A stretch of DNA of 64,000 nucleotides from Candidatus Melainabacteria bacterium (GTDB taxonomy: Bacteria > Cyanobacteriota > Vampirovibrionia > LMEP-6097): contig DUDT01000002.1 in NCBI GenBank assembly GCA_005110385.1, positions 27,854 through 91,853 of the forward strand. Reading direction: 5' to 3'. A program made the position numbers and the translations under genes. Position 1 is the stretch's first letter. Each line of letters starts with the position of its first letter. Below, piece after piece: positions 6,464 to 55,996 of the stretch. The notes under the pieces are model-generated. The model was not told the origin of the DNA. It saw only the letters and a program-made list of their open reading frames with translations, and did no database searches.

Positions 6464-7735
6464 GTGAGCTTAACTAATAATCCAAAAGAGTTCTTTCGGT
6501 GGCTAGAAACAGCCACTGAAGGAACTCTTTTTACTTTTATTTCCGAATGGCACACGAAAGGCGAGAGCAGTGAAGAACTAATTAAGTTTATAGAATTTCT
6601 TCGAGAAAAGGCGCCACCATTAAGCCTCAGGGATTTAGTTTACGACGAAAACGCAGGAATTGGAGTTTCGCTACACGCCCATCTTGCCTATGACTGTGCT
6701 GGTACCGGCGGCGATAAATCTCATAGCTTTAATATTTCTACCGGCACGGCCTTTCTTGCTGCTTACGCAGGCTTACCTGTAATTAAAAATGGCGGTCGCT
6801 CTGCTAGTAGTAAAGTAGGTTCAGTAGATGTACTTTATGAGCTAGGTTTAGATTTAGACATTAGTGAGGAAAGAAAACTAGAAGCCTTTCGAAAAGTAGG
6901 TTTAAGTTTTTTTTCTAGTAAAGTGTCTAGTGAATATCTACTGCCCGTAAAAAATTTAGCGAGGAAATATAAAGAATCCTGCTTTATAAATTTAATCGCT
7001 CCATTTCTCTCACCAATTGAGCTTCAGGGGCAGATCATTGGTATCGCTCAAGCTCGTTGGGTTCCAGTAATTAAAGAAATAGCTCAATACTTTATAAAAC
7101 AGGGCTACCGCCAAAAGTTTATCCTAGTACACTCAAACCAAGAGTTTTTAGAAAATTCTCTTAAAGAGCTAAGTGAGGGAAATACAGAGATTAGAGATTC
7201 CGAGCAGTCTCCTAACAGTACTAAGGCTGAGCTTATAAGTTCAATCTTAGATGAGTTTAATACAGCCCTGCCTTCTAAAATTATTTTCATTTCTTATAAT
7301 CCGCATTTTGACTTGTCTACAGAAAATGTACCTGTGAATAACTCTCCAACAGTAAACCTAAACGCTCAGCAAGCATATTATGAACAGGAATTTATACTCA
7401 ACCCAGCGAGCAAATCATTTTCAGAACTGGCATTAACAGCTGCAAAGCTTAAAGACCTAGAAGGCGGGAATACAAAAGAGAATGCTCAGATATTACTCAA
7501 AATCTTTAAAGGAGAGGCTCAAGACCCCAGATTAAGGATTAAAGCTGAGACTCTCGCCCTAAATACAGCCTTAATGCTTATGCTAAAAGAAGACTTTAGT
7601 CTTTTTTACGATGAAAGGAGCTTATTAAAAGAACTTACAGAGAATTACATAAAATTAAAAAAATTTCTTAAGACTCAGAATTTATATGAATTCCTAGAAG
7701 AATTACGCAAGTATTTCACAAAAGAAAAATTATGA
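6464..7735 (+). CDS. Anthranilate phosphoribosyltransferase-like (glycosyltransferase family 3) protein. It has a GTG start and carries an in-frame repeat insertion.
   Basis: 'CAGTGGD' and 'IKNGGRSASSKVGSVDVLYELG' match the TrpD GTGGDG and KHGNR..SS.SGSADVLEALG motifs. The insertion 'DENAGIGVSLHAH' lies immediately before GTGGD. Confidence 0.55.
   Translation: MSLTNNPKEFFRWLETATEGTLFTFISEWHTKGESSEELIKFIEFLREKAPPLSLRDLVYDENAGIGVSLHAHLAYDCAGTGGDKSHSFNISTGTAFLAAYAGLPVIKNGGRSASSKVGSVDVLYELGLDLDISEERKLEAFRKVGLSFFSSKVSSEYLLPVKNLARKYKESCFINLIAPFLSPIELQGQIIGIAQARWVPVIKEIAQYFIKQGYRQKFILVHSNQEFLENSLKELSEGNTEIRDSEQSPNSTKAELISSILDEFNTALPSKIIFISYNPHFDLSTENVPVNNSPTVNLNAQQAYYEQEFILNPASKSFSELALTAAKLKDLEGGNTKENAQILLKIFKGEAQDPRLRIKAETLALNTALMLMLKEDFSLFYDERSLLKELTENYIKLKKFLKTQNLYEFLEELRKYFTKEKL
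6641..6690 (+). repeat. Dispersed in-frame repeat element copy (core GACGAAAACGCAGGAATTGGAGTTTCGCTACACGCCCAT)
   Basis: Differs by about 2 mismatches from the copy at 9356-9410. Confidence 0.8.
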
Positions 7736-8704: not shown

Positions 8705-9688
8705 ATGTCTTTAGAGACTATTATCAAAAAGTATGGAGCGGAAAATATATCTTTCGCTTTACTGAAAAGGACTGACAGCGAAAACGCAGAGACTGAAGTT
8801 GTACAAGGCTCCCTAGAATTCGAAAATATACTTGAACATAACCTAGACAGCTACTTTCATCCAGCTAGTCTTTTAAAATTATTCATAAGCCTGATGGCAA
8901 GTGAGCTTTTGCTACAAAATAATCAGCCAGAAGTCAAAGAAACTGACTATGAAAAAAATGAATTAAGCAGAGCTATTCAGGAAAGTATCTCTGCATCAGA
9001 TAACGATGCTCTCGCTTTCCTTATCGATTATTTAGCATCTTATCCTTGGGATTATAATCTCATTAATACAGGAAATACCCTAAAATTCACTCCAAATCAG
9101 CAATCCCAAGATGTTTTAAATAAAATACTTAATAGCCGCCTTGAAATTAATAAATTCTTTTTAGAAAAAGGTTTTTCCGAAAAAATAAACCTCGTAAATA
9201 AATGCTTTGGCTTTGATTACTACGGCAAAGAGAAACAGATCTATGAAGCTCTAGACCAGAATCAGATCAATAATCGAGATCTAATAAAACTGTTAATCCT
9301 TATAGAAAAGGACTTTCCCCTTATTTTGAATTCCATGAAACGGACACTTAAAAATAATGAGGATGACGAAAACGCAGAAATTGGAGTTCCGCTACACGCC
9401 CATATTCCTAGTGGCATAATCAATACTGAAGATTATCAAGCTCAAGCCTTCTCAGGAAAAGTGCTTGCTGAGGAATTTAAAGTAAAAAGCATTTATTCTA
9501 AAGCTGGCTGGAATTCTAAAGTTAGGCATGACGCTGTGCTATTTAGCATAAACAAGGATGATGAAAACACAGAAAATGGCGCTGTGCAGCAGTCTCAGTA
9601 TATTTTAACTGTACTAACTAAGAACCTCAGTCATGACGAAGAGATTTTACAAGAAATCGCACGAGAAGTAATCTTGACCTTAAATTAG
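8705..9688 (+). CDS. Serine beta-lactamase-like (class A-like fold) hypothetical protein carrying three in-frame repeat-element copies
   Basis: 'HPASLLK' (SxxK), 'SASDNDA' (SDN) and 'KAGW..VRHDAVLF' (KTG-like) motifs. Repeat peptides 'DSENAETEV', 'DDENAEIGVPLHAH' and 'DDENTENGAVQQ' are also present. Confidence 0.35.
   Translation: MSLETIIKKYGAENISFALLKRTDSENAETEVVQGSLEFENILEHNLDSYFHPASLLKLFISLMASELLLQNNQPEVKETDYEKNELSRAIQESISASDNDALAFLIDYLASYPWDYNLINTGNTLKFTPNQQSQDVLNKILNSRLEINKFFLEKGFSEKINLVNKCFGFDYYGKEKQIYEALDQNQINNRDLIKLLILIEKDFPLILNSMKRTLKNNEDDENAEIGVPLHAHIPSGIINTEDYQAQAFSGKVLAEEFKVKSIYSKAGWNSKVRHDAVLFSINKDDENTENGAVQQSQYILTVLTKNLSHDEEILQEIAREVILTLN
8771..8813 (+). repeat. Degenerate copy of the dispersed repeat (GACAGCGAAAACGCAGAGACTGAAGTTGTACAAGG)
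   Basis: Matches the 54735-54790 variant (GACAGCGACGAAAACGCAGAAA...GTTGTGCAGCGG). Confidence 0.6.
9356..9410 (+). repeat. Dispersed in-frame repeat element copy (AATGAGGATGACGAAAACGCAGAAATTGGAGTTCCGCTACACGCCCATATTCCTA)
   Basis: Best-conserved copy. It shares its 5' 'AATGAGGAT' with the copy at 22001. Confidence 0.85.
9554..9598 (+). repeat. Variant copy of the dispersed repeat (AAGGATGATGAAAACACAGAAAATGGCGCTGTGCAGCAGTC)
   Basis: Matches GAAAACGCAGAAAATGGAGTTGTGCAGCGGTC at 54755-54790. Confidence 0.7.
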
Positions 9689-21508: not shown

Positions 21509-22798
21509 ATGTTCCCTAGAGAATTCTGGATCACAAAAATACAAAAAGCTTGGAGACTGAGGTCTATCATCTGGCTAGTCGGCGTAAGGCGTATAGGTAA
21601 AACCACCTTAGTAAAGTCATTATCTGAGGGTGATAAGGCGGGTAAAAACGCAAAAAATGGAATTGCGCATGGGTCTCTTCTGTATTATGACTGTGAGTTA
21701 AAAAGAAACCGTGATCTTATTGAAAGCGATGTAGAAGAATTTTGGCAGGGAAAAGAAAATAAGATCGTAATCCTAGACGAGATTCATCGTTTAGAAAATC
21801 CTTCTGAAGTCCTGAAAATAGCTGCTGATCATTATTCTAATGTTAAGGTGATAGCTACGGGCTCATCTACTCTAGCTGCTAGTAAAAAATTTAAAGACAC
21901 TCTAAGTGGACGAAAAATCGTCATAGAGCTAAGACCATTAATAGAAGCTGATCTTCTTGCTTTTGCTCAGAATAAAAATCCCAAAATAATAGAACCTATA
22001 AATGAGGATAACGAAAACGCAGAAATTGGAGTTCGGCAACAGTGCCATAATACACTTTTAGAAAAACGCTTTCTCTACGGTGGCATGCCCGAGAATTATC
22101 TCAGTGACGAACTGCCTGAATACGCCTTTGAAGAATGGATTGACTCTTACTGGTCTAAAGATATTCAAGAACTTTATGAGCTGCGTAGTAAATTTGCTTT
22201 TCAGAAATTTATGGAATTGCTCTTTATACAGAGTGGCGGAATCTTTGAAGCTAGTAAATTTGCCACTGACTGTAAAGTTAGTAGTCCGACTATTAGTAAT
22301 TTTTTACACGTACTAGAAGAAACCTTTGTTATAGATGTTCTTCGTCCTTATCATAAACGAAAAAATTCTGAAATCGTTTCAGCACCTAAGGTTTATGCTT
22401 TTGACACTGGGCTTGCTTGTTATTTAAAAGGCTGGTCATCACTCAGGAACGAGGATTTAGGTATATTCTGGGAACACTTCGTTTTAAATGAACTAAAAGC
22501 TCAGCTCCAAAACAATGCAGACATACTATACTGGCGAAACAAAAAAAAGCAAGAAGTCGACTTTATAATTAAGAAAAAACGCTCACAGACTGTTATAGCT
22601 ATAGAAACTAAATGGCAAGCTAAAAATTTCAGCCCAGACAATCTACAAGCTTTTCGTGAACTACATCCAGAAGGAGAGAATTTTCTTATCGCCAATGATA
22701 TCCAAGAATCATATACAAAAAACTATACTGACCTGAAAGTAAAATTCATTAGTTTAAGAGAATTTATCTTGCAGATTACTCTTGGCACAGCTCCTTGA
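21509..22798 (+). CDS. AAA+ ATPase, COG1373/DUF4143 family (paralog 3), carrying an in-frame repeat-element insertion
   Basis: 'WLVGVRRIGKTTLVK' and 'IVILDEIHR'. The inserted peptide is 'NEDNENAEIGVRQQCHN'. Confidence 0.75.
   Translation: MFPREFWITKIQKAWRLRSIIWLVGVRRIGKTTLVKSLSEGDKAGKNAKNGIAHGSLLYYDCELKRNRDLIESDVEEFWQGKENKIVILDEIHRLENPSEVLKIAADHYSNVKVIATGSSTLAASKKFKDTLSGRKIVIELRPLIEADLLAFAQNKNPKIIEPINEDNENAEIGVRQQCHNTLLEKRFLYGGMPENYLSDELPEYAFEEWIDSYWSKDIQELYELRSKFAFQKFMELLFIQSGGIFEASKFATDCKVSSPTISNFLHVLEETFVIDVLRPYHKRKNSEIVSAPKVYAFDTGLACYLKGWSSLRNEDLGIFWEHFVLNELKAQLQNNADILYWRNKKKQEVDFIIKKKRSQTVIAIETKWQAKNFSPDNLQAFRELHPEGENFLIANDIQESYTKNYTDLKVKFISLREFILQITLGTAP
22001..22051 (+). repeat. Dispersed in-frame repeat element copy (AATGAGGATAACGAAAACGCAGAAATTGGAGTTCGGCAACAGTGCCATAAT)
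   Basis: Shares 'AATGAGGAT.ACGAAAACGCAGAAATTGGAGTT' with 9356-9410, and 'EIGV.(Q/E)QC' with the guaA copy. Confidence 0.8.
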
Positions 22799-27626: not shown

Positions 27627-28673
27627 ATGACGACTACAACTACTACGGAGAACTCAATTAAAGTGAATGAAATTAGTAAACTCGATGAGACTAGTAAAAT
27701 CAGTGAGATGGCTAAAAGCAATCAAAGAAGCATGCTAACGCCAAGAGATCATTACAAGCCCTTTGAATATCCTCAGTTTTTTGAATATTTTAAATTACAG
27801 CAGCAGGCACACTGGCTACCAACAGAAGTTCCCATGGCTGATGACTTAGTCGACTTTAAAACTAAACTTACTCCCCAAGAATCTAATTTAATTATCCAAG
27901 TACTTAGATTTTTTACTCAAGGAGATATAGAGGTACAGAATAACTATAATAGTCATCTAATACCAGTCTTCCCTAAACCTGAAATAGCTATGATGCTTAC
28001 AGCTTTTGCTTCTATGGAAACAGTGCATGTGTGGGCCTACTCTCATTTAAACGATACGCTAGGCTTGCCAGAAGTAGAATACAGCGCCTTCCGTGAATAT
28101 GAAGCGATGAAGAATAAATATGAATATCTTCAAAACTTTAAAACGGAAAATAAATACGAGATAGCTAAAAACTTAGCTGTATTTGGTGGATTTATGGAAG
28201 GAATAGCATTATTTGCGAGCTTCGCTATCCTTATGAATTTCCCAAGACGTGGGTTATTGAAGAATGTTGGACAGATCATTACTTGGTCTATTCGTGATGA
28301 ATCTCTGCATTCAGAAGGTGTCTGTGCTTTATTTAGACAGTTCATTAAAGAAAATCCTGATATCTGGACTCCTGAATTTAAAGATGAAATTTATAAAGCC
28401 TGCGATGAAATGATTCGCTTAGAGAATAATTTCGTCGATACCTGCTTTACTTTAGGATCAGTCGAAGGCTTACAGCCAGAGGATGTTAAGAAGTATTTAA
28501 AATATATAGCGAATAAAAGACTCTCAGACCTAGGACTAGAAGGACTTTATGATATTAAAGAAAATCCTCTACCTTGGATGAACCTTATGGTTAACGGAAA
28601 AGAACACGCTAATTTCTTTGAAACCCGCGCGACTGACTACGCTAAGGGCGTAATCGTTGATGACTGGGAATAG
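27627..28673 (+). CDS. nrdB: Ribonucleoside-diphosphate reductase beta (R2) subunit, class I. No nrdA is adjacent.
   Basis: Di-iron ligand pairs 'SMETVHVWAYSH' and 'SIRDESLHSEG', plus an R2-type C-terminus 'ETRATDYAKG..DDWE'. Confidence 0.8.
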   Translation: MTTTTTTENSIKVNEISKLDETSKISEMAKSNQRSMLTPRDHYKPFEYPQFFEYFKLQQQAHWLPTEVPMADDLVDFKTKLTPQESNLIIQVLRFFTQGDIEVQNNYNSHLIPVFPKPEIAMMLTAFASMETVHVWAYSHLNDTLGLPEVEYSAFREYEAMKNKYEYLQNFKTENKYEIAKNLAVFGGFMEGIALFASFAILMNFPRRGLLKNVGQIITWSIRDESLHSEGVCALFRQFIKENPDIWTPEFKDEIYKACDEMIRLENNFVDTCFTLGSVEGLQPEDVKKYLKYIANKRLSDLGLEGLYDIKENPLPWMNLMVNGKEHANFFETRATDYAKGVIVDDWE

Positions 28674-28710: not shown

Positions 28711-29562
28711 TCAAGGCTTTGGCAACAGAGTGCTAACAGCTAGACTCTTTTTCCTAGCTAAGACTCCCCCGTTACGACGATTTAGTTTAGGTCCTTCAAA
28801 CAGCTCACAGCCAGCCTTGCTGAAACTATCTTTGGCTATACGTGCTGAACTGTAGGTAGAGATATAAGCTTTAGGCTTAGCTTTACTAACTACAGCTGCG
28901 ATAAATTCTTCTGTCCATAATACTGGACAGGTTTTAGGACTAAAGGGATCAAAAAAAATCGCATCAAAATAGTCATCTTCGATCTCAGTAACTGCATTTC
29001 GAGCATCATTTATTAAAATCCTCATATTAAGATTTTCTGTAAGTAAATTTAACTCACCGATGGTAGACGGCTGTAATACTTCACTTTCTACTTTTTCGTC
29101 ATCCTGATGTACAGCGCCACGACCAGAAGCAACTAATAATTTCTTTGCTTGCTCTGCAAGCGGCTTCATAATTGAGTCTCTAATAAATAGATAATCCTCA
29201 GGTACTTCTATATTCGGCAGTTCTGCGATAATCGCCGCATCATTTTCTAAACCTATTATCTCTATTCTCTGAGCTGGATTAATTTCCCATATTTTTTGAA
29301 TAGCGACGCCTGAATTATAAGCAAGACCGAAGCAGACATCTAGAATTCTTATTACTGGAAAACTTAAAATTGCAGGTTCCACAGAGGTCTCCGCAAGGGA
29401 AGAATTCGCAAGCTCATCTAATTTACAAGCCAGCACATGCTTATATAAGGCTTCCGTGTATGCCCCTATACTAGAGTGATAAGTCTCATTATATTCAAGA
29501 TTTTTATAAGTAGAACTACCATCTAGAGTAGTTTCCCTCACGAAAGGAGAATTAATATCCAT
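28711..29562 (-). CDS. MnmC/DUF752-type SAM-dependent methyltransferase (tRNA mnm5s2U methyltransferase-like)
   Basis: The 'AIFFDPFSPKTCPVLWTEEF' motif is characteristic of the MnmC methyltransferase domain. Confidence 0.5.
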   Translation of the reverse strand: MDINSPFVRETTLDGSSTYKNLEYNETYHSSIGAYTEALYKHVLACKLDELANSSLAETSVEPAILSFPVIRILDVCFGLAYNSGVAIQKIWEINPAQRIEIIGLENDAAIIAELPNIEVPEDYLFIRDSIMKPLAEQAKKLLVASGRGAVHQDDEKVESEVLQPSTIGELNLLTENLNMRILINDARNAVTEIEDDYFDAIFFDPFSPKTCPVLWTEEFIAAVVSKAKPKAYISTYSSARIAKDSFSKAGCELFEGPKLNRRNGGVLARKKSLAVSTLLPKP

Positions 29563-29563
29563 C

Positions 29564-29980
29564 TTAAAGCGGGTTTATAACTGAATCGCCTGTTATAAAA
29601 TAAAGAACTATATTACTAAAAGCAGTTATCAGAACGACTATTATAGTAAGAGCCGTGGCGAGCATTCTTAGTTTCGTGGTATTTAAAATCTTCTCCACGA
29701 AAAGTAAACTAATAGAATGCAAAATCCTTGATATACAGAGCAATCCAGCAAGAACATTAAAATAAATCATGTTCGGCTCCTGCATTTCAAGAAGAATTAA
29801 AAGAATTAAAGGGAGTGGAACATATTCAGAAAAATTAGCATGTGCTTTAACAGCGTAAGCTAAATTTTTACTTTCAGGTCCCTGAACCTTCCCCTTAATA
29901 CCCATGCGCACTCTAATAACTTGAGAGACGAGAAAAATATACCAGAAACCAAGGAGGGCGGCGTATACCGTAATAACCAT
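29564..29980 (-). CDS. Small 4-TM membrane protein, possibly MAPEG-like
   Basis: 138 aa with four hydrophobic helices. 'RAHANFSEYVPLPL' resembles the MAPEG loop. Confidence 0.3.
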   Translation of the reverse strand: MVITVYAALLGFWYIFLVSQVIRVRMGIKGKVQGPESKNLAYAVKAHANFSEYVPLPLILLILLEMQEPNMIYFNVLAGLLCISRILHSISLLFVEKILNTTKLRMLATALTIIVVLITAFSNIVLYFITGDSVINPL

Positions 29981-30003
29981 GCTTGCATTTTAACATGAGG
30001 GGG

Positions 30004-30160
30004 ACTGCTCGCAAACTTCAATTTCTGCGTTTTCGTCGTCCTCATGATCCTCATGTACCTTGAGTACACTGCGGTCATTCGTCCTCCTCAGCCTTGAACT
30101 TGTACGTTTGCAAGCAGCCCACGTGAATTGCTCGCAAACTTCAATTTCTGCACCACTCTC
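30004..30160 (-). repeat. Long intergenic copy of the dispersed repeat. It is palindromic and flanked by a direct duplication of GCAGAAATTGAAGTTTGCGAGCA.
   Basis: On the minus strand it reads ...GAGGACGACGAAAACGCAGAAATTGAAGTTTGCGAGCAG.... It contains an internal hairpin, GTTTGCGAGCA-N12-TGCTTGCAAAC. Confidence 0.75.
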
Positions 30161-44295: not shown

Positions 44296-45531
44296 TTACC
44301 TAGCCATGCCTATCTTCTGAGCACGCTGATAAACCTTACCTTCAGTAAGTATCCCAGGAGCTACTATAACTTCAACTTCCTGCATCTCTTTTATAGTATG
44401 GGCTCCAAGCGTCGCCATAGAAGTTTTTAAAGCTCCTACTAAATTTTGACTGCCATCATCATATATAGCTGGACCGTGTAAAAGCTCTTTAGTAGTGCAT
44501 TCTGTGCCTACTTGGATTCTAGTACCACGTGGCAGTACTGGACTAGGTGTCGCCATACCCCAATGAAAACCTCTACCCGGTGCTTCTTTAGTCCTAGCAA
44601 AAGGTGAACCAATCATAACGCCATCAGCACCACAGGCTATCGCCTTACAGATATCACCACCAACAGCCATACCACCATCAGCGATAACTGGAATATATTT
44701 ACCAGTCTGTTTAAAATACTCTATCTGAGCAGCTTTACAGTCAGCTATAGAAGTAGCCATCGGTACACCAATACCAAGTACCCCCCTCGACGTACAGGCT
44801 GCACCAGGTCCTATTCCTATAAGCAAACCTGAAATCCCTGTGTCCATAAGCTTTAAAGCCACATTATAATCAGTGCAGTTTCCTAATATGACTGGTACAG
44901 ATCTTTCACTACAAAACTTCTTAATATCAAGAATGGTTTCAGGATTCGCATTAGCTTTAGATTCTAGAGAATGATGTTCTAAACCTACCACCGTTACCTG
45001 CATAAATATCATGTCTACGCCAGCTTCCTCTAGAATAGGGGCATATCTATTAGCATTAAATGGGGCTAAAGCTACGGCTGCGACAGCACCAGAAGCTTTT
45101 ATTTTTTTAACAGCTGCATAAATCAGCTCATCTTTAATCGGCTCTTGATATATCTTTCGCATTAAAGACACGTATTCTTCTCTAGAAGAAGCTGCTATCT
45201 GATCTAAAATCGCATTATAATTTTCATAACGAGTGTATATCCCTTGTAGATTTAAAACGGCAAGAGCATGATTCTCAGAAATCACTCCTGCATTATCAGG
45301 GCTGACTACACTATCCATAGCACTTGCGATAATAGGCGTACTTAAATTTAACCCACCTATCTGCCAGCTAGTATCACAAAGCTCTATGTCCAAAGTATTT
45401 CCGTTAGGTACTAAAGAAATCTCATCGAAACCATATGTCCTTCTTGCCTTCTTGGCTCTGCCTATACTGACATAATCATATTCAAATCCAGTCTCTGTAT
45501 ATATTTCGTTCATACCTATTCCTCTAATCAT
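44296..45531 (-). CDS. IMP dehydrogenase / GMP reductase family protein lacking the CBS subdomain
   Basis: '[24 protein letters not shown]' (catalytic Cys loop) and '[28 protein letters not shown]'. Confidence 0.75.
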
Positions 45532-45589
45532 TTTCCCTATTTCCTTAATTCCCTAATTAATCTATTCAACTAACTTATTTTAATTAAAA

Positions 45590-47308
45590 CTACTCCCACT
45601 CTATAGTCGCTGGTGGCTTACTGGTTATGTCATAGACCACTCTATTGACGCCATCTACTTCATTAATAATGCGATTACTAATTTTCGCTAAAAGTTCATA
45701 AGGCATTCTTGCCCAATCTGCGGTCATAGCATCTTCACTGGTAACGGCTCTTAAGACTATCGGATGTGCGTAAGTTCTTTTATCACCCATCACACCGACG
45801 GATTTAACTGGTAAAACCGCTGTAAATATCTGCCAAACAAAATCATAGGCATTAGCTTTTATTAACTCTTCACGCACTATAAAATCTGAATCAGCGACCA
45901 TCTTAAGTTTATCTTCAGTAAGTTCACCTAGAACTCTTATAGCTAAACCTGGTCCAGGAAAAGGATGTCTGCGTACGATATATTCTGGGACGCCTAAAGC
46001 TTTAGCTAACTCTCTAACCTCATCTTTAAAGAGAGTCTTTAAAGGCTCTATGAGAGTGAATTTCAGGTCATCAGGCAAACCACCTACATTGTGGTGTGAC
46101 TTAATACTTGCAGCCACTCTTTTACCAGTTTTACTGTCTATGCGAACCCCTGAAGATTCTATTAAGTCAGAATAGAGAGTACCCTGTGCTAAAAATTTTA
46201 TTTCCATTTCACTGCACTGCTTATGCATAACAAGCTCTGCTTTTTCGCTATCACTACTAATAGATGCAGCTGAAAGAGCAAGGGTTGGGGCTTTCAATTT
46301 CGTAACTTCTTCCTGAAAAGTATAGATAAACTCTCTACCAATAATTTTCCGCTTCTGCTCAGGATCAGAAACACCAGCTAAAGCATTCATAAATTTTTCT
46401 TTAGCATTTATATACAATATCTGAATGCCAAAATCCTGCTTAAAGCTCTGCATTAGCTCCTCTGGCTCATTTTTACGCATAAAACCATGATCGATAAACA
46501 TGCAGATTAACTGATCGCCTACAGCTTCTTTCAGAAGAAAAGCCAGCGTAGAACTATCTACACCACCTGAAAGAGCCAGTAAGACTTTCTGTTCCCCCAC
46601 TGTATTTCTAATACTCTCTATTTGATCATTTATAAAAGACTGCATATCCCAGTCCTGAGAACATTTACAGATATTTAAAATAAAATTACTGATAATCTCA
46701 GTCCCGAATTCACTATGAGTAACCTCTGGGTGGAACTGTACTCCATAAAGCTTTCTAGCCGTATCTTCAAAAGCTGCTATCGCTGTATTGGCTGTTCTAG
46801 CAGAAATTTTAAAATGGCACTGCTCTGAGACATAATCACAGTGGCTCATCCACACAGAAATAGCTACTTCATCGCACTGCTCATGAACTCCAATTTCTAC
46901 GTTTTCGTCGTCCTCATACTTAATGCCATAAAACAATGAATTTTTATCGCCTTGAAAGCCAGTATTAATAAACAACTCAGCCTTACCATATTCTCTTGTA
47001 TCACTGCGCAGAACTTTAGCACCAAAATGATCTGCTAGAAGCTGCATCCCGTAACAGATTCCTAAAATAGGCACTGGTAAATCTAAAATAACTAAATCAC
47101 AGAGCAAAGCTTCTGAATCATAAATACTATTAGGACCACCCGAAAGAATAATCCCTTTTAAAATACCAGCCTCATAATCTTTCTTGATAAACTCAAATGA
47201 ATAATCAAAAGGTTTAACTTCACTATAAACTCGCAGCTGCCTTATTCGCTTAGCGATTAGCTCTGTATATTGAGACCCAAAGTCTAGAATAAGAATTTTT
47301 TCTTGCAT
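45590..47308 (-). CDS. guaA: GMP synthase (glutamine-hydrolysing), with a repeat-element insertion in the GATase domain
   Basis: GATase '[11 protein letters not shown]', PP-loop 'LSGGVDSST' and the C-terminal 'KPPATIEWE'. Inserted peptide '[17 protein letters not shown]'. Confidence 0.9.
46871..46917 (-). repeat. Dispersed in-frame repeat element copy inside guaA (minus strand: ATGAGGACGACGAAAACGTAGAAATTGGAGTTCATGAGCAGTGCGAT)
   Basis: Same orientation as the host gene. Shares 'ATGAGGA.GACGAAAACG.AGAAATTGGAGTT' with the other copies. Confidence 0.8.
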
Positions 47309-47505
47309 TTATTTTAGATTTAGCTTTACTTCTGCTAAATTTTCAAGATCTCAAAGATAGGAGTAACCCCTTCTCCAAATCAGTGTTCTATGAATTTAAG
47401 TAAAATATTTTTTTAATTTATAAAAAAATATTGGATAGAAGTATAGCTAAAATTAAATAAAAAGTAAAGTCTTTCTAAACTATTTAATTTAAAGTAATCT
47501 CTACG

Positions 47506-48813
47506 TTAAACCAAAATTTGACTCAAAAATAAAATAGAATCCTTATGTGCTTCTATAGTCCTATCTAAATCTTCATAACTATGAGCAGCGCTCATAAAGA
47601 AAGCTTCAAAAGCCGATGGTGCTAAATAAATACCACGCTGAAGCATTTCCATATAATACTTTTTAAAAAACTCTACATTAGAGGCTTTCGCCTCATCGAA
47701 ATTTTTAACCACAGTCTTCGAGAAGAACATACCGAACATACCAGCAGCTTCCACGAACTGAACTGGAATATCTCCACTAGCCATTTTTAAACCTTTAATT
47801 AAATACTGCGTCTTAGCAGTTAAATCATCATAAAAACCAACTCTCTGTAATTTTTTAAGAGCAGTAAGCCCAGCTGCCATAGCTACAGGATTACCAGAAA
47901 GAGTACCAGCTTGATACATAGCTCCTGCTGGAGCGACTAATTCCATGATCTCACGGCGTGCACCATAAGCACCTACAGGAAAGCCACCACCAATAACCTT
48001 ACCAAGTGTAGTAATGTCTGGCATTACAGAATATTTCTCCTGTGCTCCGCCTAAAGCAACTCTAAAACCAGTCATTACCTCATCAAAGATTAATAGAGAT
48101 TCATATTTATCACAAACAGTTCTTAAAGCCTCTAGGAAACCAGCCTCTGGCAGTATACAACCACCATTACCAATAATAGGCTCAACGATAATCGCGGAAA
48201 TCAATTCGCCTTCTTTTTTGAAAACCTCTTTTAATCCGAGAAAATCATTAAAATTAAGCACTATAGTATCTTGAGTTACATTACTATTAACCCCTAAACT
48301 ATCTGGTAAACCTAATGTCGCCACACCAGAACCAGCTTGCACTAAAAGTGCATCTACATGCCCGTGGTAACAGCCTTTAAATTTAATAATTTTATTTTTC
48401 TTAGGATTTAGCTTACTGGTAAAAGCTCTCGCTAACCTAATAGCTGAAAGCACTGCTTCAGTACCAGAATTCACCATACGTACCATCTCTATAGATGGCA
48501 CTAATTTAATAACTTCTGCCGCCATTAAATTCTCAAGCTCAGTAGGCGCCCCGAAACTGGAGCTACTCTTTAAAGCCTCAATAGCAGCAGCTTCTATCTC
48601 TGAATCTGCATGACCATGTATCATCGGTCCCCAAGAACCTATATAATCTATATATTCATTTCCATCAACATCATAAAGCTTCGAGCCTTTCGCTGATTTA
48701 AAAAAAACAGGGTGTGCTGCACCTACAGACCTAAAAGCCCTAACGGGTGAATTTACTCCACCTGGCATTAGGGCTTTTGCGGTATTAAATAATTCCTCGG
48801 ATCTTAAGAACAC
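47506..48813 (-). CDS. hemL: Glutamate-1-semialdehyde 2,1-aminomutase
   Basis: 'ALMPGGVNSPVRAF' and the PLP lysine region 'DITTLGKVIGGGFPVGAYG'. Confidence 0.9.
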   Translation of the reverse strand: MFLRSEELFNTAKALMPGGVNSPVRAFRSVGAAHPVFFKSAKGSKLYDVDGNEYIDYIGSWGPMIHGHADSEIEAAAIEALKSSSSFGAPTELENLMAAEVIKLVPSIEMVRMVNSGTEAVLSAIRLARAFTSKLNPKKNKIIKFKGCYHGHVDALLVQAGSGVATLGLPDSLGVNSNVTQDTIVLNFNDFLGLKEVFKKEGELISAIIVEPIIGNGGCILPEAGFLEALRTVCDKYESLLIFDEVMTGFRVALGGAQEKYSVMPDITTLGKVIGGGFPVGAYGARREIMELVAPAGAMYQAGTLSGNPVAMAAGLTALKKLQRVGFYDDLTAKTQYLIKGLKMASGDIPVQFVEAAGMFGMFFSKTVVKNFDEAKASNVEFFKKYYMEMLQRGIYLAPSAFEAFFMSAAHSYEDLDRTIEAHKDSILFLSQILV

Positions 48814-54734: not shown

Positions 54735-54790
54735 ACAGCGACGAAAACGCAGAAAGACGAAAACGCAGAAAATGGAGTTGTGCAGCGGTC
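54735..54790 (+). repeat. Intergenic copy of the dispersed repeat with an internal tandem duplication (GACGAAAACGCAGAAA x2), then ...AATGGAGTTGTGCAGCGGTC
   Basis: 'gacagcgacgaaaacgcagaaagacgaaaacgcagaaaatggagttgtgcagcggtc'. It overlaps the last codon of the permease gene. Confidence 0.75.
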
Positions 54791-54793
54791 TTA

Positions 54794-55996
54794 CTAAACC
54801 TGCAAAGCAAGTGGGTGGCTCTTACAAAAAGCTTCTATACCATCACAAGCTCTCTCCAATGCCTGCACGTCCTGTACCATCGCTATACGAATATGACCTT
54901 CACCATTAGCTCCAAAAGTCACTCCGGGAACCACGGAGACACCAGTCTCTTTTAAGAGTTTAGTTGCAAACTCCAGTGAAGTTACGTTAATCGGCACCCA
55001 AACATACATAGCACCTTTCGGATTCATAGGTTTAAAACCAATATTTCTTAAGCGTGGGACTAAATAATCTCGCCTTCTTTCATACTCTAAACGAATTTCT
55101 TCTCTGTAATCATCACCTAGATTGAGTGCTGCGATACCAGCTTCCTGAATACCCATACAGACGCCATAATCTAAATTAGTCTTAAGTTTATAAAGAGTAT
55201 GAATTATCTCTGGGTTACCACAAGCAAACCCCAACCTCATTCCAGCCATATTATAAGTTTTAGAAAAAGTATGAAACTCTATCGCTACATCCATAGCTCC
55301 CTCGACTTCTAAAATTGAACATGATTTATGCTCATCGAACCAAATCTCAGAATAAGCTAAATCATTAAGCAAGATGATGTTATATTTCTTACAAAGATCC
55401 ACAGCTTTCTTAAGGTAAGCCTTATTCACAGAGGCTCCTGTAGGATTATGCGGATAGCTAAGAATCAGAATCTTAGCTCTAATTAAAACATCTTCTGGAA
55501 TAGCGTCTAAATCACCGACATACTGGTTTTCTGGCTTTAAAGGTAATTCATAGACATGCCCGCCAGATAAAACTGTCGCACGCATATGTACTGGATAGTA
55601 AGGACTTGGTGTAATAGTTATATCACCTTCCTGAATATAGGCGAAGGCTAGGTGCCCGATCCCTTCCTTAGAACCTATTAACGGTAAAACATGAGTAGCT
55701 GGATCAAGCGTAACTGCAAAACGGCTGGAAAACCACTCACAGATACGTTCTTTAAAAGCAGGTAAACCACTGAAAATAGGATACTGCTGATTACGCAGCT
55801 TATGCATACCATCGTATAAAGCTTTAAGTACAGTCGGATGCGTAGGACGATCTGGCGAACCTAAACTTAAATCTATAAGCTCTTTACCCTCGGCAGCGAC
55901 TTCCATTTTTAGCTCATCTAACTGTCCAAACGCGTATGGAGGCATGTCTACGAGCCTTAAAGATGGGAGTACCCTATAATCCGAGTAAAGTTTCAT
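54794..55996 (-). CDS. PLP-dependent aminotransferase, class I/II (AspAT/LL-DAP-AT-like)
   Basis: PLP-lysine region 'FHTFSKTYNMAGMRLGF'. About 400 aa, fold-type I. Confidence 0.75.
   Translation of the reverse strand: MKLYSDYRVLPSLRLVDMPPYAFGQLDELKMEVAAEGKELIDLSLGSPDRPTHPTVLKALYDGMHKLRNQQYPIFSGLPAFKERICEWFSSRFAVTLDPATHVLPLIGSKEGIGHLAFAYIQEGDITITPSPYYPVHMRATVLSGGHVYELPLKPENQYVGDLDAIPEDVLIRAKILILSYPHNPTGASVNKAYLKKAVDLCKKYNIILLNDLAYSEIWFDEHKSCSILEVEGAMDVAIEFHTFSKTYNMAGMRLGFACGNPEIIHTLYKLKTNLDYGVCMGIQEAGIAALNLGDDYREEIRLEYERRRDYLVPRLRNIGFKPMNPKGAMYVWVPINVTSLEFATKLLKETGVSVVPGVTFGANGEGHIRIAMVQDVQALERACDGIEAFCKSHPLALQV

Follow-up and report, generated by a model that had tools for sequence, protein, structure and literature searches.

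A Probable In-Frame Remnant of a Palindromic Miniature Element in the GMP Synthase Gene of a Melainabacterium

The guaA gene and its repeat-derived segment

The 64,000-nucleotide stretch analysed here (the window) covers positions 27,854 to 91,853 of contig DUDT01000002.1 from a Candidatus Melainabacteria bacterium (GCA_005110385.1). It contains guaA, the gene for GMP synthase, in which part of a dispersed repeat element lies in frame. The gene is an uninterrupted open reading frame (ORF) on the minus strand (45590..47308) and codes for 572 amino acids. GMP synthase is an essential enzyme. The product was identified as the glutamine-hydrolysing form by its matches to GuaA structures in the PDB (E-values from 1e-154 for 5tw7 to 1e-138), and the Pfam domains on record for it are GATase (PF00117), NAD_synthase/ATP_bind_3 (PF02540) and GMP_synt_C (PF00958). 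The Cys-His-Glu triad, the SGGVDS loop and the C-terminal dimerisation domain expected of the family are all present. GuaA orthologs, labelled P0010, P0047 and so on, were compared in alignments of 27 and of 40 sequences. Among the 40 aligned orthologs the class-I amidotransferase triad (C85/H193/E195) and the SGGVDS P-loop of the ATP-pyrophosphatase (S247-S252) are invariant.

The repeat-derived segment, referred to as site 1, consists of 48 nt (46871..46918, minus strand) and corresponds to the 3' third of an element of 121 nt. An nhmmer profile built from 69 full-length copies matches 46918..46871 at profile positions 81-128 (E 5e-8). In pairwise comparison, 46871..46917 is 83% complementary to 22002..22048 over 47 nt, 94% complementary to 9357..9389 over 33 nt, and 88% identical to 30004..30045 over 42 nt. 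The sense strand of the element is the coding strand of guaA, and the 48 nt are read in frame as 16 residues, Y131-D146, situated between the conserved blocks SLFYGI and SVWMSHCD of the GATase domain. A first-pass annotation of this DNA had described a repeat element inserted in the GATase domain, with its peptide between conserved blocks and in the minus-strand orientation of guaA. Position, flanking blocks and orientation were all borne out by the repeat pairs, the profile match and the PDB and Pfam identity of the gene. The inserted sequence is indeed dispersed-repeat DNA, but it represents only the 3' third of the element and not the whole.

The genome is derived from a metagenome and repeats often cause mis-assembly, so guaA might be a decaying pseudogene or a chimera whose insert is uninformative about tolerance. 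We give this almost no credence, as the ORF is full length, the catalytic and P-loop residues are invariant, and dN/dS is 0.06-0.12 between the window gene and five orthologs of its clade. The gene order hemL-guaA-IMPDH/FMN_dh-like (window 44296..48813, minus strand) is also kept in all relatives retrieved, which come from independent assemblies. Exactly the same protein is recorded on 13 contigs (NCBI, JGI, Logan, ENA, MetaClust), which makes an artefact of one single assembly unlikely. The comparison supports a guaA that looks functional with its insert, being intact and constrained. The outgroup too keeps this gene order for guaA and the IMPDH-like gene.

In the AlphaFold2 model of the protein (mean predicted local distance difference test score, pLDDT, of 78) residues 133-145 score below 50, between strands predicted with confidence on either side (106-114 and 148-156). 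The insert is accordingly predicted to sit in a low-confidence, disordered loop. Tolerance of the element in a core enzyme, also put forward in the first-pass annotation, agrees with the intact ORF, the invariant catalytic residues, the low dN/dS and this low-pLDDT loop. The 5' arm of the terminal stem described below is missing from the segment, whose predicted fold is unremarkable (z -0.24), and the two features together mark it as an immobile remnant.

Site 1 in GuaA orthologs

Element sequence was found at site 1 in every GuaA ortholog with at least 81% identity (548-634 aa). The next relatives, P0047-P0049 (69-72% identity), do not have the insert, and neither do other Melainabacteria, cyanobacteria and E. 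coli. Confinement to one clade, with no such segment in the GuaA of unrelated taxa, agrees with the insertion described in the first-pass annotation. The number of units differs within the clade. One short unit is found in the window, P0026 and P0029, two partial units in P0035 and P0045, a short and a full copy in P0010, P0025 and P0044, and three units in P0016. The complete element is present at exactly this site in P0010, P0016, P0025 and P0044.

These alleles bear on how the short form arose. The full copy in P0010, GGCACGGTTGCC...GCAACCGTGC, has ATGAA on either side. The short copy of P0029 takes its 5' part from the upstream unit and its 3' arm from the downstream unit, and this mixed composition identifies it as a recombinant deletion product of the two repeats of a P0010-type allele. 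The left junction in the window reads ...AAGT|ATGAGGAC..., which would be the expected leftover of a deletion between the ATGAA duplication and an internal ATGAGGA. On this distribution the site 1 insert is read as an old, decayed, clade-wide remnant and not as a recent event.

The length of the site 1 loop also varies elsewhere among GuaA orthologs, E. coli having about 8 residues more than P0047-P0049. An ordinary lineage-specific loop expansion by slippage or indel, resembling the repeat by chance or amino-acid composition, could be suspected from this variation. It would have to account for 83-94% nucleotide identity, synonymous positions included, to copies in unrelated genes and spacers, for the profile E-value given above, and for orthologs in which all 121 nt of the element, together with a 5-bp duplication, occupy the exact site. 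We consider such an expansion extremely improbable.

Anatomy of the element

The window contains a single full-length copy of the element, which served as reference for the family. This copy of 121 nt (30001..30121, minus strand) lies outside genes, flanked by a CNNM/CorC gene and a MAPEG gene, and matches the profile at positions 7-130 (E 2.8e-38). It is 85-98% identical over 95-150 nt to copies at dozens of loci, and these long matches show that the 45-nt repeat is only part of a longer element. The consensus of the 69 aligned long copies is GGGACTGTTGCCAAACGAACAAGTTCAAGGCTGAGGAGGACGAATGACCGCAGTGTACTGGGGGTACATGAGGATCATGAGGACGACGAAAACGCAGAAATTGGAGTTCGGCAACAGTCCC. Of 66 long copies, 60 measure exactly 121 nt.

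The ends form terminal inverted repeats with arms of about 16 nt, columns 1-16 pairing with columns 106-121. The arms are only 65% identical between copies, with 48 arm haplotypes in 60 copies, and 91% of their pairs in the same 60 copies are Watson-Crick. Compensatory changes occur in 12 of 15 arm pairs. In a set of 30 copies 95.6% of the cells in these columns are paired; over 21 pairs the figure is 96.7%, against 81.4% in shuffles, and both partners have changed in 14 of the 21. Covariation scores 0.444 against 0.174, a value that none of 500 shuffles reached, and the signal is abolished when the pairing partners are slid by 1-3 columns. Between the arms lies a purine-rich core of 89 nt with about 90% mean pairwise identity, containing a small internal hairpin (GTGTAC...GTACA) which also covaries. 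The full copy has a minimum free energy of -47 kcal/mol (z -6.4). Mismatches in the arms comprise 29 G.U and 19 A.C (p 0.19), a difference that favours neither RNA nor DNA as the molecule that folds.

Long copies are flanked by A/T-rich direct repeats of 5 bp, the sequence of which varies from copy to copy. The two pentamers agree perfectly in 35% of long copies (permutations, 1.8%) and at four or more of five positions in 59% (permutations, 19%). Such copy-specific repeats in excess of chance denote a target-site duplication. With its small size, terminal inverted repeats, target-site duplication and dispersal in many copies that show occupied as well as empty alleles, and with no transposase gene of its own (its sole open frames encode 40-aa peptides), the element has the properties of a transposable element of the miniature inverted-repeat type (MITE).

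No Rfam 15 family reached its gathering score in the window, and the full element gave only a chance snoRNA match (E 7.9). Two other identities were considered and rejected. A tmRNA-tag-like origin of the 'DEN...' peptide finds neither tRNA or tmRNA genes nor an Rfam match in the window. For a hammerhead-like CUGAGGA...CGAAA motif, stem II cannot form when drawn by hand and Rfam gave no match.

Size classes and arrangement of copies

The profile search gave at least 258 element matches in 773 kb (104 loci and the window). About 100 are full length, about 140 start at profile positions 60-100, and about 35 are 5' fragments; some of those starting at 60-100 belong to a longer variant, family B, and are not truncated copies. 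Family B measures about 193-196 nt and has, in place of the small internal hairpin, some 85 nt of inserted sequence with covarying hairpins of its own. Its copies were located at L069 6823-7010, L001 850-1036 and L008 ~7340-7560, and also on L025, L049 and L021. In forms of medium length the stretch between the internal direct repeats TGAGGAnGACGAA is deleted.

Nesting is frequent. Among 73 long copies, 24 have the 3' end of a further copy directly before them on the same strand, most often at a distance of 5 nt, which equals the length of the target duplication. Head-to-tail arrays are found at L091 1733-2127 (three units, period 127), at L027 2505-2769 (two units, period 126) and in the window at 30001-30148. 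They suggest insertion beside the ends of resident copies, or a tandem intermediate. The short copies could have been 5'-truncated insertions of the retroelement kind with duplications of their own, a possibility that was rejected because matching pentamers are not in excess around them. The guaA alleles and the internally deleted medium forms suggest that short copies arose by deletion, as a pattern of the family and not copy by copy.

Coding compatibility

Element and target duplication together measure 121+5 = 126 nt, or 42 codons. Family B with its duplication measures 198 or 201 nt, which is also a multiple of three, keeps the same frame open and occurs inside long ORFs. Only two of the six frames are free of stops, (+,0), which reads GTVAKRTSSRLRRTNDRSVLGVHEDHEDDENAEIGVRQQS, and (-,0). 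The (+,0) peptide is charged and hydrophilic (GTVAERTSSRLRRTNDRSVLGVHEDHEDDENAEIGVRQQC). Full copies give SSRLR / TNDR / SVL.VHEDHEDDENAEIGV... and intragenic copies give ...HEDHEDDENAEIGV.QQC.

Roughly one copy in two is intragenic. Where the host ORF has 120 codons or more, the (+,0) frame is used by 106 of 108 copies, and the two exceptions are Selenomonadaceae contigs with chance 21-mer matches. After clustering by flanks, all 61 independent intragenic loci share one orientation and one frame. Copies between genes face either way with respect to the adjoining genes, so the uniformity of intragenic copies reflects a filter of selection and not an insertion bias.

The strong covarying terminal stem, the conserved core and the identical pentamers on both sides of full copies could also serve an element that is never translated, being removed like an intron or bypassed by the ribosome with stem and pentamers as take-off and landing sites. 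Bypass elements are known as short mobile inserts in essential genes with matching flanking triplets (the 'byps' of Magnusiomyces mitochondria, T4 gene 60); byps are skipped by the ribosome and need not be open or a multiple of three in length. The present element differs in being open, a multiple of three and confined to one frame, and these three features together point to read-through translation rather than bypass. Frame and stops would be irrelevant to a removed or bypassed element, yet the 61 intragenic loci all use the single stop-free sense frame and both size classes keep a length divisible by three. The guaA copy and most intragenic copies of the window, moreover, lack the 5' arm, so that no stem is possible, and no Rfam family matches. 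A spliced or bypassed element was rejected on these grounds and is regarded as highly improbable.

A second possibility is an adaptive peptide module, for instance an acidic His/Asp/Glu patch with a metal-binding or regulatory role, or a shared tag, recruited into many proteins and kept for its function. The retention of the insert in guaA across the whole clade, the same acidic motif in several window proteins, and the raw core substitutions (synonymous fraction 0.40 against 0.22 expected in the coding frame) speak for it. The synonymous excess disappeared when unique variants were counted, the hairpin was excluded and transitions and transversions were matched (14 against 15.0 expected). The raw excess is therefore no evidence for a selected peptide, conservation lies at the nucleotide level, and selection on the peptide was rejected. 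The same DNA is also frequent in spacers, where it lies in either orientation, and close relatives differ in having one to three units at the guaA site. Disorder is predicted for the segment, and the element has the hallmarks of a transposon. An adaptive module is thus improbable in our judgement.

Distribution

Underlying the element counts given here is a search for the 21-mer GAAAACGYAGRAATTGRAGTT in a single genome of each species, which returned at least 104 stretches. Almost all the matches listed come from six metagenome-assembled genomes (MAGs), namely Vampirovibrionia Deming_bin.154, 'Cyanobacteria' REEB446, samp_4445_VAMB_679, 'Proteobacteria' WB4_1_1465, Caenarcaniphilales RE-15aug16-7 and Caenarcanales CTOTU1255. 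The lineage that carries the element is Melainabacteria > Vampirovibriophyceae > Caenarcanales, and within Caenarcanales (Melainabacteria/Vampirovibrionia), which are non-photosynthetic relatives of cyanobacteria, it is restricted to one clade of genus rank. Compared with syntenic stretches of three of the six assemblies, the window shows 87-94% nucleotide identity, which places it in a sister genome. Hits of the 21-mer in Alphaproteobacteria, Clostridia, Cytophagales, Flavobacteriaceae and Selenomonadaceae were rejected as chance matches, with profile E-values of at least 0.003 or no profile hit. The full element had no match in plasmid, phage and viral collections.

The contigs of 'Proteobacteria bacterium WB4_1_1465' (L004, L007, L011 and other RFQS01 contigs) carry the element and show 88-94% nucleotide synteny with the window, and the label 'Proteobacteria' is probably wrong. 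The sample names of the element-bearing MAGs suggest lakes and reservoirs.

Proposed origin of the insert

We consider it likely, with good confidence, that site 1 is the decayed 3' third of a translation-compatible MITE which was anciently inserted in frame and has since undergone decay by deletion with occasional re-expansion. The element is proposed as a new family of in-frame-tolerated, non-autonomous, palindromic MITEs resembling the Rickettsia palindromic elements (RPE). An insertion in an open frame within a surface loop or linker would only lengthen the protein. In the ancestor of the clade a copy would have entered the guaA loop between SLFYGI and SVWMSHCD, where the ribosome would have read through it and the insertion would have been tolerated as more or less neutral. 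The 5' two-thirds would then have been lost, plausibly by deletion between short direct repeats (the ATGAA duplication and the internal ATGAGGA), and in some lineages the same 5-bp site would have been invaded or expanded again. A DDE-type transposase would presumably act in trans. The 5-bp duplication and the head-to-tail copies 5 nt apart would fit a DDE enzyme, perhaps one of the copy-out/paste-in type.

Translation of the 16 residues is suggested by the frame statistics and the length in multiples of three. Several points weigh against this origin. The insert may have a beneficial role. No transposase or autonomous relative was identified in the 8-kb loci, where no systematic search was made. 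Pairs of split 5' and 3' element parts 0.2-6 kb apart are present. The short copies have no target duplication of their own, with full pentamer matches in 7.5% against 5.4% in permutations. Arms that covary instead of being conserved are also unusual for inverted repeats recognised by a protein. The covarying arms hint at a single-stranded or hairpin intermediate and offer a lead to an uncharacterised mode of mobilisation.

The invariant asymmetric core, the freely covarying stem and the expandable peripheral hairpin of family B are also what a functional folded molecule might show. The element would in that case be no passive MITE but a folded RNA or single-stranded DNA, such as a new ribozyme or a hairpin-dependent transposition substrate, and a hairpin-dependent pathway would have to make 5-bp duplications and target the ends of resident copies. 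Alternatively, the HEDHEDDENAEIGV peptide might be a co-opted common tag carried by dozens of proteins. To a folded molecule or a co-opted tag we assign a small chance, and the in-frame MITE is preferred in what follows.

Comparison with known repeat families

In-frame MITEs have been documented as RPE (PMC10969869). The account of Ogata et al. (2000) conveyed in that article describes palindromic repeats of about 100-150 bp with many copies per genome (PMC10969869). A large share of RPE lies in frame in unrelated housekeeping genes and encodes a conserved, tolerated peptide, and no transposase is known for them (PMC10969869). The present element is likewise a palindromic repeat of many copies, in frame in unrelated genes (61 of 61 loci; five window genes) with a conserved peptide. 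Unlike RPE, which belong to Alphaproteobacteria, it resides in Melainabacteria, and the resemblance is one of behaviour only, with no claim to membership in the RPE families. The clear 5-bp duplication, the covarying arms around an asymmetric conserved core, the frequent head-to-tail nesting at 5 nt and the predominance of the 3' third among intragenic copies further distinguish it from RPE.

MITEs with intragenic ORF fusions are also reported for the QMITEs of Coxiella burnetii (PMC5896051) and for ERIC, BOX and Correia elements (PMC10969869). Like these, the element is small and non-autonomous, has inverted ends and target duplications and is at times fused in frame to a host ORF. In those families the intragenic in-frame copies form a minority, and TA is a frequent duplication. 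Of the present element, in contrast, about half of all copies are intragenic, and all of these use one frame.

Tn3-derived miniature elements (TIMEs) have a 5-bp duplication, A/T-rich targets and ends that begin with GGG, and all three features are shared by the element. Tn3-family ends are about 38 bp long and conserved in sequence (GGGG...TAAG). Classification as a TIME was rejected because the arms measure about 16 nt and are variable but complementary (48 haplotypes in 60 copies). The REPINs and REP sequences mobilised by RAYT are long hairpin repeats with compensatory stem changes, many copies and clade-specific occurrence; REPINs are extragenic, consist of two inverted REPs and make no target duplication. 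The stem of the present element, unlike that of REPINs, closes a large asymmetric core, and the element duplicates its target and enters genes. The literature search retrieved no paper linking Melainabacteria or Caenarcaniphilales with MITEs or with such repeats.

To our knowledge, translation-compatible selfish DNA that colonises genes at high frequency has been reported mainly in Rickettsia. The element described here would represent an independent case of the same strategy in another phylum. Among close relatives, guaA alleles of the full, short, empty and footprint kinds still segregate, with repeated hits in an essential enzyme, and provide a natural series for the absorption and decay of loop insertions of 16-42 residues. 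For the annotation of Melainabacteria MAGs the element is a cause of inflated gene lengths, broken contigs and spurious 'novel domains'.

Further sites in guaA

The guaA gene has been struck at two or three sites in total. Site 3 (46814..46825, minus strand) is a footprint, GAGCAGTGCCAT, which is read as 'EQCH' and corresponds to the final bases in the 3' arm of a further copy. The window, P0010 and P0029 retain only GCAGTGCCAT here, a footprint of 10-12 nt. P0041 holds 77 nt of the element at this site (nt 554-630, E 2e-18) and P0039 holds 44 nt (nt 520-563, E 1.5e-10). The site is empty in P0013, so that occupied, empty and footprint alleles are all found among the orthologs. The deletion at site 3 also took the native residues LEPVSILNN.

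Site 2 is an insert of 27 amino acids (T342-M368; 46205..46285, minus strand) in the ATP-pyrophosphatase domain and is present in part of the clade only. Residues 340-367 score below pLDDT 50 and are predicted to be disordered in the AlphaFold2 model. A 14-residue peptide within it is similar to the element peptide, and a hand count gives 29 of 42 ungapped identities to site 1. The DNA of site 2 showed no significant similarity to the element by nhmmer or by local alignment (score 35.5 against 32.9 +/- 5.0 in shuffles). An origin of site 2 from the element is possible.

Other copies in the window

The profile search detected 11 element matches in the window, namely the guaA remnant, one full copy and nine fragments. 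A fuzzy search with the 24-nt core returned ten copies, all readable in one frame as (E)DDENAEIGV.(Q)QC. Eight of the ten are situated in ORFs, on the host strand and in the host frame, and two lie just past stop codons. Five genes are affected, coding for GuaA, a TrpD-like protein, an AAA_14/DUF4143 ATPase, an MnmC-like methyltransferase and an unknown protein of 327 aa.

In the TrpD-like gene (Glycos_transf_3) a short copy is in frame near the N-terminus (6642..6686, plus strand). The ATPase gene has a short in-frame copy between its two domains (22002..22051, plus strand) and a weaker second copy at 21621..21681. The copy in the methyltransferase gene (Methyltransf_30; 29064..29109, minus strand) is short, diverged (E 0.002) and in frame just before the domain. 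Within ORF 8705..9688 a short copy of the 3' third is in frame at 9354..9406 and two further copies are located at 8774..8818 and 9555..9601, all on the plus strand. This ORF (plus strand, 327 aa) has no Pfam match and, with three element segments, a sizeable part of it is repeat-derived.

Among the intergenic copies, a short one (54756..54796, plus strand) lies in the 60-nt spacer of convergent genes and is preceded by a partial duplication of 16 nt. A 3'-end fragment (30126..30148, minus strand) is positioned just upstream of the full copy in head-to-tail arrangement. Core positions ~33-47 of the element hold GGAGGACGAATG, a Shine-Dalgarno-like motif with an ATG in another frame, and in the window this ATG opens an ORF of 72 aa (30078..29860, minus strand) that overlaps the next gene.

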